A DNA stretch of 38,544 nucleotides from a virus (lineage: Duplodnaviria > Caudoviricetes): the IMG/VR virus record IMGVR_UViG_3300020045_015905, positions 1 to 38,544 of that record; one strand, written 5' to 3'. The notes beneath the pieces were generated by a model. It did not search any database and had not been told where the DNA came from. It saw only the letters and a list, made by a program, of their open reading frames with translations. A program made the translations under genes and the position numbers. Of this stretch, positions 3,472-37,545 are shown in pieces (position 1 is the first letter of the stretch; every line of letters begins with the position of its first letter).

Positions 3472-4542
3472 TTAGAAAATAAATCCAATGTCCATGCCTT
3501 TGGGCTGCGCGTCAATCCACGCTTGGTCCTTCAGTTCAAAGTCACCCCACCATCCAAGTTCCTTGCCGGCTTCCCAAGTTCCTGGGCCTGCGATGTGACA
3601 GAGTTTTCCGTTTGTACCAACGATATAAATTTCTGGGCGTGTCCCTTTAACGAGTCTAAGCATAGTGTCTTCATTAGGATTTGGTAAATCCGTGTAAGTA
3701 AGAGGATTGAACAAATGTGGTGTGTTGAAATAATCGCTGCGGAGTTTCTGCCAGCCTTCACCTGGTGGGTCTCCCGGCTTCCATTTATAGTTTGGATTCA
3801 ATGGACCGTTTGAGTTTGGTGTTGCGATAAATTCACCGAGTTCATCAGTGCCGAAAGCACCAAAGAAAATACAATGTCCCCAAATAGCGTCGCCGGGTTG
3901 TGGTGGGTGTGGATTTTCAGTGCTCCAACCTCGGCCATTACTACCATTGACTCCACCGACTACACCAAAGTTTTTTTGAATGGCGAGAGCAAAGAGGCGC
4001 ATGTCATTTTTTACTGGGAGTTTTTGGAGTTGTTTACCTCGCAATGCTTTTGCTATCGCAAGGATTGCGTCAGTTTTCCAGCTTCGGTCTTCCATGAAAG
4101 CTTCATCAACCGAACCATCAGGTTTGTGACTTGGCACAACGCTTTCTTTTACCGCACCAACGTCGACAATCAACTGTCCCCCGTCGGCGAGATAGGCCGA
4201 ACCACCACGAAGAACAATTTGTGAGTAGATAAATTTTGCCGAAAGTTCTTCGACTTTCTCTGGGTGTTTTTCTCTGAGCTCTTTGAGGTTCATGCCGTAT
4301 TTTCTCATCATTTCAATGACTTGAAAAATCCATGCTTGATAGCTCCAACCTTGGCCAACACAAGAAAGAGACGGTCCTTGATACTTTTCTTTGATTCCGT
4401 CATTCAATGGATTGCGGACATCAAAACCTTTTTTGAAATCCAAACTATCAAGCTCCTCTTGGGTATACTCAAAGGCAATCATCGCCCCAAGTTCTTCCTC
4501 TGTTTGTTGAATGGCCCCGTTTTTGAAATTTTCTTCATTCAT
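3472..4542 (-). CDS. Papain-like (C1) cysteine peptidase, putative endolysin with a C-terminal binding module
   Basis: YQGPSLSCVG (Q, C), WGHCIFF (H), PNSNG (N); C-terminal LVKGTRPEIYIV...CHIAGP module; sits between tail fibre and holin. Start moved to MNEEN (4542) to remove the overlap. Confidence 0.7.
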   Translation of the reverse strand: MNEENFKNGAIQQTEEELGAMIAFEYTQEELDSLDFKKGFDVRNPLNDGIKEKYQGPSLSCVGQGWSYQAWIFQVIEMMRKYGMNLKELREKHPEKVEELSAKFIYSQIVLRGGSAYLADGGQLIVDVGAVKESVVPSHKPDGSVDEAFMEDRSWKTDAILAIAKALRGKQLQKLPVKNDMRLFALAIQKNFGVVGGVNGSNGRGWSTENPHPPQPGDAIWGHCIFFGAFGTDELGEFIATPNSNGPLNPNYKWKPGDPPGEGWQKLRSDYFNTPHLFNPLTYTDLPNPNEDTMLRLVKGTRPEIYIVGTNGKLCHIAGPGTWEAGKELGWWGDFELKDQAWIDAQPKGMDIGFIF

Positions 4543-4552
4543 AAAATAAAAA

Positions 4553-5815
4553 TTATAAAGATTCATTTTTTCCAATGAGAGCTTGACCGTCTCCACCATC
4601 GCCACCATTCGTTCCACTCCCCCCGGCTTTTGTTCCACCTATTCCACCAGTAACTACTGTAGTCCCAGAATTTGCCGTCAGATCATTATACAAGCCAAGA
4701 ATGAAGCCACCACCGCCACCGCCACCGCCTGAAGCATTTTCCGTACCAGAACTTGAAACCGTACCATTTTGTCCAGCTTCACCTTTGGCGGTAATAGTAC
4801 CGGTGAAGTTAAAAGATCCCGCACATTCAATTATTACGAAACCACCACCACGGCCACCTCGGCCAGAGGTTGATGTACCTGAGTTATCAGTCGCACCACC
4901 TGAACCACCACCAGCCCCACAGAATATAATAAATTTTTTGGTCAAATTTATTCCATCAATTGTTTGAGTGAACTCAACTACTGTTCCACCAGGCGCAGCC
5001 GCTACTGGTGAATTTGCTGAGCTTGCAGAACCTGCATTTTTTCCAGCACCACCACCACCACCAGTAGATTTGTAAGATCCACCAGTCGAAGCCTGTCCAG
5101 CGCCTCCTTTATGCAAAGAAGTGACACCATCAACATTTTGCATGAAGCCTTGAGTACCCTCATTACCATTAACTTCAGAAGTATTAGCAACCGCAGCAGC
5201 CCCATAAATAGCTCCACAATAATCAACATTGATTGTACCCACAATGTCGACATTGCCTGTAGCACGCAACCACAAACCAGAACCATCACTAGCTGGATTG
5301 ATAAGGGCAAGTGTCGCGCCAGAGGCGATATTGATCGTTGTATAATTCTTTTTAACAATATTTACACTACTCGTCGCGTCGATATTTGTTGTTCCTGAGG
5401 GAACACTCAAAGCACCGTCAGAACCGTCCCCACCAAATTTTGACTTATCGGTTGAGCTCGAAGAAAGCATGAGCATGCTTGTGCCATCATACACAACGTA
5501 CACAACATCACCACTTTTAATGTCGCCAGAAATCAAATTTTTATTACCAAATTTTAAAATGTTTTTTGCACCGATAGAATTCACATTCAAAGTCGCCGGG
5601 CCGGTGTTTGCAAAATTCGCTTTGAATTTAAAAACCTGCCCCTCGTTATAGGCAGCTATGGCAGAATCAATCGCAAGAGTATAGGCATTGGAAGAACCAG
5701 CAGAAGCGGCATAGTCTCCGCCATTTTGAATGACATCTTTTCGCAAAGCATTATATTGACTTGCAAGGACATCATCGCCACCTGCGACTTGAGCCGAATC
5801 AAGATTTGTTGCCAT
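4553..5815 (-). CDS. Tail fibre / receptor-binding protein, glycine-rich C-terminus
   Basis: NAYTL...FKANFANTGPATLNVNSIGAK fibre motif and GGGGG-rich repeats; end of the tail module. Confidence 0.8.
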   Translation of the reverse strand: MATNLDSAQVAGGDDVLASQYNALRKDVIQNGGDYAASAGSSNAYTLAIDSAIAAYNEGQVFKFKANFANTGPATLNVNSIGAKNILKFGNKNLISGDIKSGDVVYVVYDGTSMLMLSSSSTDKSKFGGDGSDGALSVPSGTTNIDATSSVNIVKKNYTTINIASGATLALINPASDGSGLWLRATGNVDIVGTINVDYCGAIYGAAAVANTSEVNGNEGTQGFMQNVDGVTSLHKGGAGQASTGGSYKSTGGGGGAGKNAGSASSANSPVAAAPGGTVVEFTQTIDGINLTKKFIIFCGAGGGSGGATDNSGTSTSGRGGRGGGFVIIECAGSFNFTGTITAKGEAGQNGTVSSSGTENASGGGGGGGGFILGLYNDLTANSGTTVVTGGIGGTKAGGSGTNGGDGGDGQALIGKNESL

Positions 5816-30006: not shown

Positions 30007-30240
30007 TTAATATTGATTAGATACGTAGGTTTTGAGGTTTTTGATCGCGTTTGAGTAGGCGAGTGCAGACACAGACAATTGACCACTGAAGTACGCCTCG
30101 TATTCTTTTTTTGCTTCACCGTCGAAAGTGAACTCATATAAATTATTATACCGACGTTCTGCCTTCCGAAGTATATAGCCTTGAACTTGCAAAGCTGCCG
30201 CGAGACCAATGTCTCGCACTACGAATATCTCGTCAGACAT
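30007..30240 (-). CDS. DUF5659-like small protein
   Basis: F..RDIGLAAAL...GY, F.F, Y..G.L.V....Y...IKNLK pattern. Confidence 0.7.
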   Translation of the reverse strand: MSDEIFVVRDIGLAAALQVQGYILRKAERRYNNLYEFTFDGEAKKEYEAYFSGQLSVSALAYSNAIKNLKTYVSNQY

Positions 30241-30598
30241 ACCAGTCTTTTAAATAATGTTTTGATTGGCCCTTGAGATGAGCCAGAACATCCTCGTAAG
30301 TAAAATATTTTGCAGTTCGGTTTGAGACTCTTCTGAGATTTTCAAACCAGAGCGTGCCGAGCCGTACAATGATAGCGTCTTCCATGCCCTTTTTCTCTTC
30401 GTCGTGAAGCCTCATGTGCTCTTCATGGGTCAAAGCTATTGCATTCGGCAAATACCAGCGTGTGGCCTCATTTCTGCGACCATAGAAGTGATGTATCACC
30501 GTCGCCGGGAGACCACTCAGCACTGATTTGCCATTCCACATTTCAAGGCCAATTATTTGGAACTGTTTATCCAGTTCGTGAGATTGAGAAGTGGTCAT
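30233..30598 (-). CDS. NinG/HNH-like nuclease lacking the structural cysteines
   Basis: LDK.F, HHFYGRRN.ATRW...NAIAL...EH..LH; start set at MTTSQ. Confidence 0.7.
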   Translation of the reverse strand: MTTSQSHELDKQFQIIGLEMWNGKSVLSGLPATVIHHFYGRRNEATRWYLPNAIALTHEEHMRLHDEEKKGMEDAIIVRLGTLWFENLRRVSNRTAKYFTYEDVLAHLKGQSKHYLKDWYV

Positions 30599-30599
30599 A

Positions 30600-30740
30600 T
30601 TATAGCACATTTTTGCTTTTCTTCACAGTTTTTTCAGTGGCTTTGTTTTTGCACACGCTGCAAATGGTCAAAATCGTTTCAGTGCCACACCCTGAGCATT
30701 TTCTAAACTTTGTCTTTTTCTTCGGTTGGTCGGGTTTCAT
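30600..30740 (-). CDS. Zinc-ribbon micro-protein
   Basis: CSGC-x8-CSVC; start set at MKPDQ. Confidence 0.55.
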   Translation of the reverse strand: MKPDQPKKKTKFRKCSGCGTETILTICSVCKNKATEKTVKKSKNVL

Positions 30741-31092
30741 ATTTAAGATAAAAATTGATAAGAGAAATAGCTTCGTCGGCTCCAAAACAAACCCGTGCCA
30801 CTACATTTCCGCCGACTTCATTCAATGCTTTTTGCCAAACTTTTTGACAATCAGAGACCGTTGATTTTTTCACTCGCTTGAGTTCAATGAAGAGAAGTGT
30901 GTGTTTAACGATGATCAACAAATCAGGGAGGCCAGCGCGCAAGCCACTGGCCTTGTTTTTACTCTTCTGTGCCCATGATTTTGTGTAGGTGCTATTTGGG
31001 ATTGAGGAAAATTTCAATCCTCGTCTTTCCAAATACTCAACGACTACTTTTTGCTCATCATACTCAAGTGGAACCGGACTTTTGAAGTTCAT
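30703..31092 (-). CDS. VRR-NUC domain nuclease
   Basis: E..EQ, IPN, GLRAGLPDL, FIELK, S..Q..W; start MNFKS coupled by ATGA. Confidence 0.9.
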   Translation of the reverse strand: MNFKSPVPLEYDEQKVVVEYLERRGLKFSSIPNSTYTKSWAQKSKNKASGLRAGLPDLLIIVKHTLLFIELKRVKKSTVSDCQKVWQKALNEVGGNVVARVCFGADEAISLINFYLKYETRPTEEKDKV

Positions 31093-31178
31093 AGAAAGAG
31101 GCATTTTGTACAATATTCATTTGAGACTGAAGAATTGAATGCCGGTCGTCCACAATTTCCTTTGCATTGAGTTCGCAT
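31089..31178 (-). CDS. 29-aa Cys4 micro-protein
   Basis: MRTQCKGNCGRPAFNSSVSNEYCTKCLFL; stop overlaps the VRR-NUC start (ATGA). Confidence 0.55.
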   Translation of the reverse strand: MRTQCKGNCGRPAFNSSVSNEYCTKCLFL

Positions 31179-31262
31179 ACACAAGGTTTTTAAGATTGGT
31201 GCCGGAGTTTTTTTGCCCAGTCTCCGGCGTCCAGGGTCTCCCCGCTTGTCAGGCGGTAAGAA

Positions 31263-31481
31263 TCACTGAAGAGAAACGACGTACACTTTGCTCAGCTCGC
31301 CACCCACTTCTGGAATGAAATACCGTTGCCGGCATTTCACGCACAGGAAGAAGTAACCGAGGTAGTGCCGAGTGTAGGCAATTTCATGGTAAACGCGGCC
31401 GTGGCCACATTCACAATCGAATTGCGAGTCGGCTACAATGCGACTCATCCGTTTGCCAGTAGCCTCAAGACGAGTCGCCAT
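31263..31481 (-). CDS. Zinc-ribbon protein
   Basis: CECG...CVKC; SD-like GAGAGGA and its own upstream promoter. Confidence 0.7.
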   Translation of the reverse strand: MATRLEATGKRMSRIVADSQFDCECGHGRVYHEIAYTRHYLGYFFLCVKCRQRYFIPEVGGELSKVYVVSLQ

Positions 31482-31513
31482 TTTTGTCCTCTCTTTCTAT
31501 GGTGAATACACAC

Positions 31514-31542
31514 AGTATACACCTTTTTTGACTTTTTTTCTA
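31514..31542 (-). promoter_or_regulatory. Putative sigma70 promoter
   Basis: TAGAAA-17 nt-TATACT; shares AAAAGTCAAAAA with the promoter at 34894-34922. Confidence 0.5.
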
Positions 31543-31746
31543 CTAAAATGGTGACTCTGGAGCAAATTTTTTGTGGAAAAACATTTGTGAGTTTGGATTA
31601 TATTGTTGAATTTCGACATCGACACGAGTGTCATCGAATGAAAGAAATTCAGTGGTTGATTTGTAATATACCAATTTTATTTTTTTATCCTTCGTCTGAA
31701 GTGTCACCTTGTAAGGCATGTTGTACGAAGAATAATTGTGTATCAT
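31543..31746 (-). CDS. Hypothetical protein
   Basis: 67-aa ORF, ATGA overlap with the upstream ORF. Confidence 0.55.
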   Translation of the reverse strand: MIHNYSSYNMPYKVTLQTKDKKIKLVYYKSTTEFLSFDDTRVDVEIQQYNPNSQMFFHKKFAPESPF

Positions 31747-31958
31747 ACGTTTTCAAGTTCTTTTTTCGCAGCATTATAACCTTCCGAATAAGAAAAATTC
31801 ACCAGTTCTTTCAAATGTTCATGACACAAAGTAACTTCACACACATTATTGCAAACGCTTGCGTCACCTAAAATAGCACCACAAATAACTTCCATAGAAA
31901 ACATTTTATCCCATATCAACAGCCTTCCCCAGGAAAGCTGATGACATTGGCCGATCAT
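31743..31958 (-). CDS. Small Cys-containing hypothetical protein
   Basis: ICG.......CNN....LC.EH, Y.EGY..A C-terminus; true start may be a downstream ATG. Confidence 0.55.
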   Translation of the reverse strand: MIGQCHQLSWGRLLIWDKMFSMEVICGAILGDASVCNNVCEVTLCHEHLKELVNFSYSEGYNAAKKELENV

Positions 31959-32018
31959 ATTGCGTCTTAGTAAAAAAAATTACTAGGAAACGCTGTTGAT
32001 ATAGGAATTTATTAAAAT

Positions 32019-32492
32019 TTATTTAAAAGTATTTTTACTTTCGGCATTGAGCACGAACCCATCAAGCAAACCAACGTCAATTTTTCCCTCTTTCGTTGAC
32101 TCAAAAGTAGCAGTACCAAGTTTCTTTGTTTTATTGAATCCACCAGGAAAGCCAAAGGTTCTTGAAATATACCAATCGTAATTATTCCAAAGCTTCTCAG
32201 TTCTCACTTTGATAAATTCTTTGTTTGACTCCCATGAAATGAATTTAGCGTCATGGTATTCAAGTTGCATGCCTGCGACATAGCTTGTATCAGGTTTGTC
32301 TTTTGTGCCTTGTGGGACTGCGTATACGTCTACTGTGAAGACTTGACCGACTGTAGTGGTAGATACTGAGGACATGGTGGCGAGCATGGCGGCATGACAG
32401 GGTGGTGCTATGAAAAATAAAAGTGCTACCGTAAAAATACAAACTATAAATAAAATTGTTTTTAATATGTTTAATTGTTTTTCTAATTTCAT
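32019..32492 (-). CDS. Secreted cohesin-like domain protein
   Basis: Signal peptide ending CHA-A; VGQVFTVDV, LEY, GFPGG, LGTATFESTKEG, VLNA strand pattern. Confidence 0.7.
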   Translation of the reverse strand: MKLEKQLNILKTILFIVCIFTVALLFFIAPPCHAAMLATMSSVSTTTVGQVFTVDVYAVPQGTKDKPDTSYVAGMQLEYHDAKFISWESNKEFIKVRTEKLWNNYDWYISRTFGFPGGFNKTKKLGTATFESTKEGKIDVGLLDGFVLNAESKNTFK

Positions 32493-32504
32493 AAAAGAGA
32501 AAAG

Positions 32505-32654
32505 TTAATAATCTTTTTCATTTGAGCTACAACAATTTCCAGTCATTACAATTGTTCCGTAGTGTTTATTACAATAAGCGTTTTCACAGTATGAACAATA
32601 AAGTTCTGCCACCTCTCCACAAACACAGCATATTTTGTTTTCTTCTTGTGTCAT
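32505..32654 (-). CDS. 49-aa B-box/MYND-like zinc-finger micro-protein
   Basis: MTQEENKICCVCGEVAELYCSYCENAYCNKHYGTIVMTGNCCSSNEKDY, translated by hand; ATGA-coupled. Confidence 0.7.
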   Translation of the reverse strand: MTQEENKICCVCGEVAELYCSYCENAYCNKHYGTIVMTGNCCSSNEKDY

Positions 32655-32818
32655 ACAAAATGTTTATAAATAAGTATCCCCAGCAACAATGCGACCAATC
32701 CGTAAGCAAAAAGCAATTCAGCTCTGAGCATTTCTATTTTCTTTTGTTGCCAATTTGGCAAGTCGAAACTTTTAAATTCGTCGTCCTCTTTCCAAGGACT
32801 CACTTTGTATGGGACCAT
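32651..32818 (-). CDS. 55-aa membrane micro-protein
   Basis: MVPYKVSPWKEDDEF...LLFAYGLVALLLGILIYKHFV, with an AT-rich leader. Confidence 0.6.
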   Translation of the reverse strand: MVPYKVSPWKEDDEFKSFDLPNWQQKKIEMLRAELLFAYGLVALLLGILIYKHFV

Positions 32819-32881
32819 ATAAAATAAATAAAAAGATAAAATACAACGGGTGCCTTTTAAGGTTCAAGGCTAACCAATCCG

Positions 32882-33079
32882 TCAATTCTCCATATTGACG
32901 GTGTAGCCACAATCGTGGCATTTGAAAAAGTAGTGAATATCACGACCATGGGTCGTTTCAATCGTTTTTGCGTGATCGTAGAGTTTCCCTTTCTCACACT
33001 TTGGGCAATTCGGTGACTCGGTGTCAACGAGAAGCAAGGTGAAGAAGTGGTCGACGAATACTTCCATTTGCTGAGGCAT
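32882..33079 (-). CDS. Zinc-ribbon protein
   Basis: CPKCEKG...FKCHDCGY. Confidence 0.7.
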   Translation of the reverse strand: MPQQMEVFVDHFFTLLLVDTESPNCPKCEKGKLYDHAKTIETTHGRDIHYFFKCHDCGYTVNMEN

Positions 33080-33185
33080 TTTTTACTTCTTTCTCAAGGA
33101 TAGTTCCGCAAGTTTTGCACTTGACGGTACCGTTTTGAATTACCAGATTTTGCTTCGCTCCTTCGTCACAACCGTGACATGTCAT
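33024..33185 (-). CDS. 53-aa zinc-ribbon micro-protein
   Basis: MTCHGCDEGAKQNLVIQNGTVKCKTCGTILE...; SD AAGGAG 6 nt upstream of the ATG. Confidence 0.7.
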   Translation of the reverse strand: MTCHGCDEGAKQNLVIQNGTVKCKTCGTILEKEVKNASANGSIRRPLLHLASR

Positions 33186-33187
33186 TT

Positions 33188-33401
33188 TCATCTCCTTCAT
33201 GATGTGGGCAAGGATTTGACGAGATGGAGCCCAGGCTTTGCTCCGTGGTAAAGTTGCTTCTTTACTGCCTAGCCAGTTTGTTACTCGTATATTGCATTGC
33301 AGGTGGATATTTTACGGACACAGATTTTTACGTTCCACTCCAGCTAGGTGTCTCTAGCCTTTAGCGGCTCATAGTCCGCCACCACATCATGAAAGAGATG
33401 A
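33188..33401 (-). ncRNA. Candidate multi-stem structured RNA closed by a 20-bp stem
   Basis: 33401-33382 pairs with 33207-33188 (19 Watson-Crick pairs plus one G-U on the transcribed strand), enclosing about six hairpins. Confidence 0.65.
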
Positions 33402-33533
33402 TTTTCTTTTTTCCCATGCGATCGCACAAGGCTCGCACATTCCAACACCGAACCAAAAAATCAATTGTAGACATGTCTCACAGGTGATTTGCTGAGTAAA
33501 GACTTTCCACAATAATTTTATGGTTCCCCTCAT
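33387..33533 (-). CDS. 48-aa Cys4 micro-protein
   Basis: MRGTIKLLWKVFTQQITCETCLQLIFWFGVGMCEPCAIAWEKRKSSLS; starts 2 nt after the upstream stop. Confidence 0.6.
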   Translation of the reverse strand: MRGTIKLLWKVFTQQITCETCLQLIFWFGVGMCEPCAIAWEKRKSSLS

Positions 33534-33535
33534 AG

Positions 33536-33949
33536 CTATTCAAAATCTTGGTATTTTGATTTTAAAGTATTTTTACTTTCACAAGCTGGGCATGGTATTT
33601 CTTCGATATCCGGGCCAGCATTGAACTCATGAGCGCATTCTTCACAATACCAGTTTACATGCTTGGCTCCTTTTGGAGTGACATCAGGCTTTGAAAAAGC
33701 CGAGTACGGCATTCCTTTTTTCCAACCAACCGGACGACCACGTCCAGACTTCTTTTGAGGTGTTGATTCGACACCAATCATTGCCTCTTGCGAAGACATA
33801 AGTGCCTTTGCAAGTTTTGGGCCTCGTTTTTTGCGAGGACCTGTTTTATACACAGGTATGCCCTCACTATCCAGCAATGCCTCAAGCTCTTTTTCTAGTT
33901 CATCGATTGAATGGACAAGCTCTTTTATTCTCTCGATTTTTTGATTCAT
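33536..33949 (-). CDS. Putative DNA-binding protein: coiled coil, AT-hook-like motifs, C-terminal zinc ribbon
   Basis: RKKRGPK, SGRGRPVG, CEEC...CPACES. Confidence 0.7.
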   Translation of the reverse strand: MNQKIERIKELVHSIDELEKELEALLDSEGIPVYKTGPRKKRGPKLAKALMSSQEAMIGVESTPQKKSGRGRPVGWKKGMPYSAFSKPDVTPKGAKHVNWYCEECAHEFNAGPDIEEIPCPACESKNTLKSKYQDFE

Positions 33950-34893: not shown

Positions 34894-34943
34894 ATTATAC
34901 CATACTTTTTGACTTTTGTCAAGTTTTTGGCAAGTTATCCACA
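34894..34943 (-). promoter_or_regulatory. Consensus sigma70 promoter with an adjacent DnaA box
   Basis: TTGACA(34922-34917)-17 nt-TATAAT(34899-34894) with extended TG; TTATCCACA at 34935-34943. Confidence 0.85.
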
Positions 34944-35122: not shown

Positions 35123-35151
35123 ATTATACCATACTGTCAGACTTTTGTCAA
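35123..35151 (-). promoter_or_regulatory. Consensus sigma70 promoter, near-duplicate of 34894-34922
   Basis: TTGACA(35151-35146)-17 nt-TATAAT(35128-35123) with extended TG. Confidence 0.85.
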
Positions 35152-35159
35152 GTTTTAGA

Positions 35160-37283: not shown

Positions 37284-37372
37284 AAAAAAAACTCCTTGAG
37301 TCTGGACTTGCTTTGGCTAATCACAGCCAAGGGGTGCGTCACCGCAAGCCCAGTCCAGACTTAAAGAGTTTT
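37284..37372 (-). ncRNA. P4 CI / P1 C4-like antisense RNA candidate
   Basis: About 20-bp stalk, 5-nt bulge, minor and major hairpins, U8 tail; UGUGAUUA at the major loop is complementary to upstream UAAUCACA (37387-37380). Confidence 0.65.
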
Positions 37373-37400: not shown

Positions 37401-37429
37401 ATTATATCATAATTACCTAGAAAAAGCAA
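37401..37429 (-). promoter_or_regulatory. Sigma70 promoter for the replication operon
   Basis: TTGCTT(37429-37424)-17 nt-TATAAT(37406-37401) with extended TG. Confidence 0.8.
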
Positions 37430-37505
37430 GAACTGGACACCGAGCCGTAGCCAAGTTGAGCGTCCTTGCTTTTCCCATCCTCAGGTTTGAGAAGGTAAGT
37501 TTGAG
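37420..37505 (-). ncRNA. Candidate small structured RNA / attenuator
   Basis: CUCA-aacc-UGAG hairpin, then AAAAGCAAG...CUUGCUUUU enclosing a C(UACG)G-capped stem; no ORF. Confidence 0.45.
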
Positions 37506-37510
37506 GGGTA

Positions 37511-37539
37511 ATTATACCATTTTTAAAGAACTTTGCCAA
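37511..37539 (-). promoter_or_regulatory. Sigma70 promoter
   Basis: TTGGCA(37539-37534)-17 nt-TATAAT(37516-37511) with extended TG. Confidence 0.75.
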
Positions 37540-37545
37540 GTCCTA

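Follow-up and report, generated by a model that had tools for sequence, protein, structure and literature searches.

A 214-base element with a 20-bp closing stem between two small cysteine-rich genes of an uncultured phage

RNase III unmasks occluded ribosome binding sites, as at stems of E. coli adhE and lambda cIII, cuts T7 and lambda messages, with early intercistronic sites described for T7, and needs about 22 nt of substrate (PMC5371410, in the sections that deal with these sites). Coupling of two genes through a paired initiation region is likewise a described mechanism, named UTNI in the relevant part of PMC6728339, with the rplJL and infC-rpmI operons as examples. Here, a 214-base element on the minus strand (33188-33401) of a viral sequence was compared with these and further systems. 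The element resembles the RNase III stems covered in those sections of PMC5371410 in its long helix, its place in a polycistronic phage early message and its covered ribosome binding site. It differs from them in that the helix is long-range, encloses 174 nt and looks inserted, and in that cleavage is a prediction here.

The window, i.e. the whole stretch of DNA that was analyzed, is the entire IMG/VR virus record IMGVR_UViG_3300020045_015905 of an uncultured phage (38,544 bases). Its genes are those of a tailed phage and include Mu-like portal, protease and head genes as well as DnaB, two DNA methylases and a VRR-NUC nuclease; every gene that was recognised is encoded on the minus strand. For the capsid protein there are 124 uncultured relatives; no relative above 30% was found among annotated phage records. 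The element is placed between two tiny cysteine-rich genes, whose products are plausible zinc binders by weak Atlas scores (0.91-0.92). Two 12/12 sigma-70 promoters are located about 1.5 kb upstream, and the element is therefore likely part of an early polycistronic message. Start sites of the phage were evaluated with 51 hand-picked starts, leaving out the 3 of 54 ORFs whose starts were unclear. An SD-like word preceded 2 of the 51, a T was found at position -1 in 47, and the upstream sequence was 81% AT. Both SD-led genes come after accessory inserts. The minus-strand word TTTTATATG occurs four times in the window, each time at a gene start. Such SD-free, U-rich starts would, as we assume, fit Patescibacteria or Bacteroidota as host. 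The features of the locus are collected in Table 1.

Table 1. Positions of the element, its parts and its surroundings in the window
Feature	Position	Strand	Remarks
Accessory block	32844..33536	-	about 690 bp; 48-, 53- and 65-aa ORFs and the element; absent from contig L010
48-aa ORF	33387..33533	-	CxxC-x11-CxxC; begins 2 nt downstream of where the 137-aa gene stops; no family match
AAA abutting the 5' end	33402..33404	-	second copy next to the 3' end (33185-33187); may be a 3-bp target duplication
Closing stem, 5' arm	33382..33401	-	holds the end of the 48-aa ORF (four codons and UGA)
Interior	33208..33381	-	174 nt; as a whole, folding no better than shuffles
First inner hairpin	33362..33381	-	one U after the stem, with CGGACUA; single-sequence ensemble probability 0.03
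Words ACACCUAG and GUAAAAAUC	33323..33351	-	same order in the sister element
RNase P-like stretch	33224..33244	-	18/21 identity with E. coli RNase P RNA (first conserved region)
Internal second anti-SD	33210..33222	-	element nt 180-192; predicted to pair with the SD once the 5' arm is unavailable
Closing stem, 3' arm	33188..33207	-	AAGGAG (33192-33197), two in-frame AUGs, word GGAGAUG
53-aa zinc-ribbon-like ORF	33024..33185	-	58 aa if started at 33200; one of the two SD-led starts of the 51

The closing stem is real and goes beyond chance. A preliminary description of the sequence had proposed a 20-bp stem whose 5' arm overlaps the end and UGA of the 48-aa ORF and whose 3' arm overlaps AAGGAG and an in-frame AUG of the zinc-ribbon ORF, and all of this is present in the sequence. 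Minus-strand positions 33401-33382 pair with 33207-33188 in 19 Watson-Crick pairs and one U-G; the upstream UGA occupies element nt 13-15, and the in-frame AUGs of the 3' arm lie at 33200 and 33191. No other minus-strand helix of at least 16 bp within 400 nt has so few G-U pairs (below three). By chance, the genome should contain 0.0012 inverted repeats of 19/20 within 400 nt. The stem has a mean pairing probability of 0.98 and a duplex energy of -32.4 kcal/mol. Comparison of the folding with shuffled sequences gave a divided result: the whole element reached a z of -6.0 (0/200 shuffles as good), but this value comes from the closing stem, since the interior alone reached only -0.72, with 44/200 shuffles folding as well. 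The genome holds one copy of the element. The earlier failure to recognise a known family agrees with the Rfam comparison, which gave no gathering-score match in the window and, at E<=10, nothing relevant around the element or in the related contig L010. The nearby match with the best E-value was RAGATH-25 (17.7 of 49 bits), located outside the interior. A literature search found no description of such an element.

The interior had been described as packed with stems, a picture that its folding no better than shuffles does not bear out. Of the nine inner helices that had been listed, three were recovered in the ensemble at a probability of at least 0.79 (GGCUAG/CUAGCU 0.96, GUAAAG/CUUUAC 0.91, ACGAG/CUCGU 0.79) and two were intermediate (GCAA/UUGC 0.55, GGAGC/GCUCC 0.37). 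The remaining four did not exceed 0.11, among them CUG/CAG (0.11), GGCGG/CCGCU (0.03) and GUGGA/UCCAC (0.02). CUG/CAG and GUAAAG/CUUUAC are mutually incompatible, because both need G137. Without CUG/CAG, the fold proposed before has an energy of -68.2 kcal/mol, compared with -76.0 kcal/mol for the MFE. The mutually exclusive pairing CCUAGCUGG:CUGGCUAGG, the last of the four weak helices, had an ensemble probability of 0.02. The 5' 86 nt gave a z of -3.9, but in a rod-like fold that differs from the one proposed, and the 3' 101 nt gave +0.5. A loop-loop pseudoknot, GACAC/GUGUC, is a candidate whose pairing is possible by letters. The word GUAAAAAUC has a T-loop-like shape.

A profile search with the upstream 137-aa protein gave one true relative among 22 matches. 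Searches with an alignment of these two sequences led to one metagenome contig, L010, and found no locus in GTDB. L010 is 79% identical over window positions 34834-33537, and the alignment resumes at 32843. The accessory block in between is missing from L010, and thus the element is accessory. The contig carries another stem-closed element (L010 3071-3219, z -3.9), here called the sister element, at a site in the genome that differs from that of the 214-base element. When the 214 bases were removed in silico, the upstream frame ended at a TGA in a four-base overlap (ATGA) with the downstream ATG, a coincidence of frames roughly estimated at 1 in 8-10. This -4 spacing is found in 5 of 26 neighboring early gene pairs, and the four-base stop/start overlap is given as the commonest prokaryotic gene spacing in the part of PMC10666635 that covers it. 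The abutting 3-nt repeat has a genome-wide chance of 0.019, but is likelier than that here, because the flanks are A-rich. Based on the ATGA overlap on removal and the AAA flanks, the element looks inserted. The sequence suggests an insertion that gave the upstream gene a new stop and the downstream gene an SD and an AUG. A natural empty-site allele was not seen among these sequences, L010 being without the whole block and not the element alone.

Inert or near-inert MITE-like DNA would leave much the same traces. The inverted ends would then be transposon ends, and the RNA helix, the stop and the SD by-products that let both genes survive. This reading is consistent with the 19/20 terminal inverted repeat, the length of 214 bp, the possible 3-bp duplication, the tidy empty site obtained in silico and an interior not folded beyond chance. 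Size, repeat and duplication lie within the MITE ranges given in the relevant part of PMC11602168, where terminal inverted repeats of at least 10-15 bp, a length of 50-800 bp and no transposase define the class, all of which the element shows. It further shares with the prokaryotic and viral MITEs treated in the passages used of PMC11602168 and PMC3184786 an intergenic position, a possible flanking repeat of 3-4 bp and a long RNA stem; unlike them it is single-copy, has no known mobiliser and has some of its interior words, not its ends, in common with a probable relative. We consider the MITE-like reading unlikely. MITE families share their ends, but here the ends of the sister element have another sequence and share just one 7-nt word. 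Several same-ended copies would belong to a MITE, but there is one copy in the genome and none in the collections searched; DNA homologues were absent from 72,556 plasmids and 50,697 phage records. Neither a transposase nor a reverse transcriptase over the cut-off was detected among the 54 proteins scanned.

Our preferred reading, held tentatively and somewhat short of even confidence, is a portable insert that serves as an RNase III-type stalk and frees the ribosome site it carries. The element would have landed where the stop of one accessory micro-gene overlaps the start of the next, and would be transcribed within the early polycistronic message. The 20-bp helix is predicted to form from the two ends of the element and would be the substrate of a host RNase III-type nuclease, expected to cut both strands with a 2-nt 3' overhang; the cut would release the interior RNA and free the SD for the next gene. 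In the intact element, the SD was fully paired (0.0 unpaired). In fragments starting at nt 195-205, as would result from a cut in the 3' arm, it was predicted to be 0.73-0.88 unpaired. Blocking the 5' arm, in the way a terminating ribosome would, resulted in 0.23-0.44 unpaired, and removal of the 5' arm alone in 0.28. By these models, cutting therefore frees the SD better than passage of a ribosome. The 20-bp stem was counted as sufficient with respect to the minimum of about 22 nt that PMC5371410 gives in the section concerned. A point against this reading is that a cut in the middle of the stem, just before the upstream UGA, would deprive that message of its stop. If the element is such a stalk, or a MITE-like insert, it would be a modest case: an insertion that repairs its own landing site with a stop and a ribosome site.

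Passage of ribosomes is the central step of an alternative raised in the preliminary description, a long-range coupling switch, which would be of the UTNI type: ribosomes that terminate on the 48-aa ORF would open the 5' arm and thereby make the SD of the next gene accessible. The geometry for this is present. The stop codon lies within the 5' arm, the SD is covered in the intact element, both ORFs plausibly encode zinc-binding peptides and, as in the UTNI operons described in the part of PMC6728339 used here, the end of the upstream ORF pairs with the region where the downstream gene initiates. Once the arm had opened, the SD was 0.77 unpaired, provided that two weak inner helices, GCAA/UUGC and ACGAG/CUCGU, were held. 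However, holding this inner core costs 6.4 kcal/mol, and at equilibrium the internal anti-SD recaptures the SD, which stays mostly paired after blocking of the 5' arm, being bound by nt 180-192 at up to 0.75. This predicted second, local anti-SD that keeps the site shut distinguishes the element from the UTNI cases in that part of PMC6728339, as does the different arrangement in the relative. The arm of the sister element contains no stop codon and its SD is placed outside the stem, and coupling thus cannot be the purpose of the family. Use of an SD is moreover exceptional in this phage. In view of these points, the coupling switch appears quite unlikely. An excised ncRNA, the other option in the preliminary description, may apply, given a stem of sufficient length for an RNase III-type cut and a few interior words that also occur in the sister element. 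For the proposed partnership of the RNA with the zinc-finger peptides the analysis offered no support.

The processing stalk is favored because a cut frees the SD better, because of the arrangement in the sister element and the rare use of SDs, and because of the RNase III precedents; the near-absence of SD motifs from the core genes of the phage was also counted against it. Three more long-stem elements are found at gene junctions of the same early region, and one of them is kept in the sister. This is a candidate four-way-junction RNA at 31909-32006 of the minus strand (z -6.5), which corresponds to L010 2583-2680; the two differ at 3 of 98 nt, and each of these changes fits the fold (one is U-G to C-G). 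Its conservation is weak support, since the surrounding block itself is 92% identical. The other two, at 37288-37372 (z -7.3) and 37418-37477 (z -3.3) of the minus strand, are located between a promoter-like box near 37515-37540 and a replication-initiator-like gene, and the former has a U-run at its end, as terminators or attenuators do.

The sister element is flanked by ACAA on both sides, a 4-nt abutting repeat with a chance of 0.008, and is preceded by an extended -10 box of its own, recognised by eye. Just after it follows an SD-led gene for a 96-aa Cys-rich basic protein (L010 3239-3518) with 10 homologues. Both elements contain, in the same order, the words CGGACUA, ACACCUAG, GUAAAAAUC and GGAGAUG (7-9 nt each), the last of which recurs in the 3' arm of the sister element. 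Four ordered words were reached by 22 of 9,694 windows of related phages (p ~0.002) and the chain score by 21; with the interiors only, word sharing was equalled by 80 of 12,760. Against kinship speaks a global alignment, made with a slightly mis-cut interior, which was matched by 25/1000 shuffles. Both interiors open with one U and a hairpin, the six pairs of which all hold between the two elements through one two-sided and two one-sided changes. Covariation among homologues, which had been named as a check of the fold, was seen as one compensatory change in this first hairpin; with two sequences only, the shuffle control (254/500) carries no information. Also against kinship, the sister element on its own gave a covariance model whose 34 matches at E<=10 did not include the 214-base element; the 65 extra bases of the latter may exceed the span of the model. 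Judged from these sequences, the sister element is probably related to the 214-base element. One member of the 96-aa protein family, P0155, reads through the leader, and its peptides match both sister arms around an unrelated interior of about 87 nt. This suggests, at the level of translation only, that arms can stay while interiors change.

A wider proposal can be built on this kinship. Portable RNA modules of SD-free phages might form a family that is so far undescribed, with these two elements as its first members; the modules would insert at gene junctions with a structured core (the first hairpin, the ACACCUAG helix and a T-loop-like strand), variable closing stems and their own stop, SD and start. 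Such modules would gate small zinc-finger accessory genes or be released as functional RNAs, possibly tRNA-elbow binders or RNAs derived from RNase P. As a whole we regard this proposal as rather unlikely. If the kinship is true, a large group of uncultured phages, to which the capsid relatives belong, would carry an uncatalogued portable family of structured RNA, and it would offer a testable handle on how SD-free phages switch on imported accessory genes.

Searches for further members gave no third one. A joint model found none in 1.39 Mb of collected loci or in 50 related virus records, and a pattern search of these 50 records had no match. Pattern scans of IMG/VR and GTDB returned 7, 2 and 1 matches, all judged to be chance. 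Scans of IMG/VR by way of the 137-aa, 215-aa, capsid and sister 96-aa proteins revealed no locus with the element. A long-stem scan of the collected loci found no look-alike and also missed the bulged sister element. The shared words had no match in three of the supplements of PMC10690425, a catalogue of 10,000 viral RNA candidates.

The interior words and the first hairpin common to both elements would also suit a small RNA that acts in trans and belongs to a new phage family, with the stem only as its maturation stalk. Such an RNA may bind tRNA elbows through its two T-loop-like CGUAAAA strands or derive from pieces of RNase P RNA. The two-segment alignment to E. coli RNase P RNA was not equalled by any of 1000 shuffles and ranked first of 718 phage windows. 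When 27 RNase P RNAs were used, the element had a mean z of 1.9 and ranked first among 119 windows, compared with a z of 0.8 for tmRNA, 0.7 for cobalamin and -0.1 for 6S; these 27 are not independent sequences, as 26 of them are cyanobacterial. The best single segment, i.e. the 18/21 stretch, was equalled in 10/1000 shuffles against E. coli rnpB. With RNase P RNA (RF00010) the element has in common this match, a possible bulged 7-bp P4-like helix and two A-rich T-loop-like strands. In contrast, the profile HMM score was just 1.9 bits (hmmsearch), a value reached by 6 shuffles with 678/1000 reported, and neither a covariance-model nor any other Rfam match to RNase P was obtained. The matched pieces conflict, being neither colinear nor a simple circular permutation, and the sister element has no likeness to RNase P (z -0.4). 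In P4 of RNase P RNA the catalytic U69 is bulged (PMC11143913, in the part on P4), but the element has a C in its place. The helix needed to close both T-loop-like loops has a probability of 0.02, and the RNase P family was chosen after the fact. Membership in RNase P RNA was rejected on the absence of an Rfam cut-off score, the C for U69 and the order of the segments. A remote derivation from RNase P or a double T-loop may still apply, and the trans-acting RNA as such we regard as unlikely, a little more so than the coupling switch.

On the plus strand, a 46-aa hydrophobic ORF (33224-33364) lies inside the stem, which could make the region a type I toxin-like antisense message with the stem as a 5'-3' long-distance lock. 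The ORF fits between the arms, AAGGA is located 9 nt before its ATG, and the plus-strand fold has a z of -4.4. However, every recognised gene is on the other strand, the stem mismatch becomes A-C on the plus strand, and the ORF has no Pfam or PHROG match and is not a called protein in a collection of 15 billion. Its hydrophobicity presumably comes from reading an A-rich strand backwards. We regard this reading as highly improbable. Several further candidates were dropped. A retron ncRNA was rejected as no RT family is found among the 54 proteins, and tRNA or tmRNA as neither ARAGORN nor Rfam made a call. Integron attC, group I/II intron, cobalamin and bridge RNA were set aside by eye against consensus features. 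The idea of an anti-leader, in which CGUAAAA would pair with UUUUAUG starts, was given up, since it did not outperform shuffled sequences (79/100 for 7-mers and 130/200 for duplex energy).

Further observations were made in the neighborhood and in distant relatives. The variable early region, 30233-33949, holds at least eight small ORFs in a run with CxxC or Cys/His motifs. A second accessory block in it, 31140-31530, has a GC content of 50% and an SD-led 72-aa Cys/His-rich ORF; it occupies the same site as the stem-closed element and the 96-aa gene of the sister. In contigs of distant relatives, inverted repeats with AT-rich interiors were found. L055, a distant capsid relative, has a near-perfect 39-bp repeat at 2193-2401 with 131 AT-rich bases inside, nested in a second 17-bp repeat, and L052 has a 20-bp repeat at 4399-4560. 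A perfect 26-bp repeat at 4064-4347 of L062 comes with repeated TTGCCAGACA units and is origin-like. In the window itself, related promoter boxes occur at 34894-34924, 35123-35153 and 37511-37541, including two perfect TTGACA-17-TATAAT with an extended -10. A 58-aa HTH gene is located between the first two boxes, and together with these flanking promoters it is likely an autoregulatory switch.
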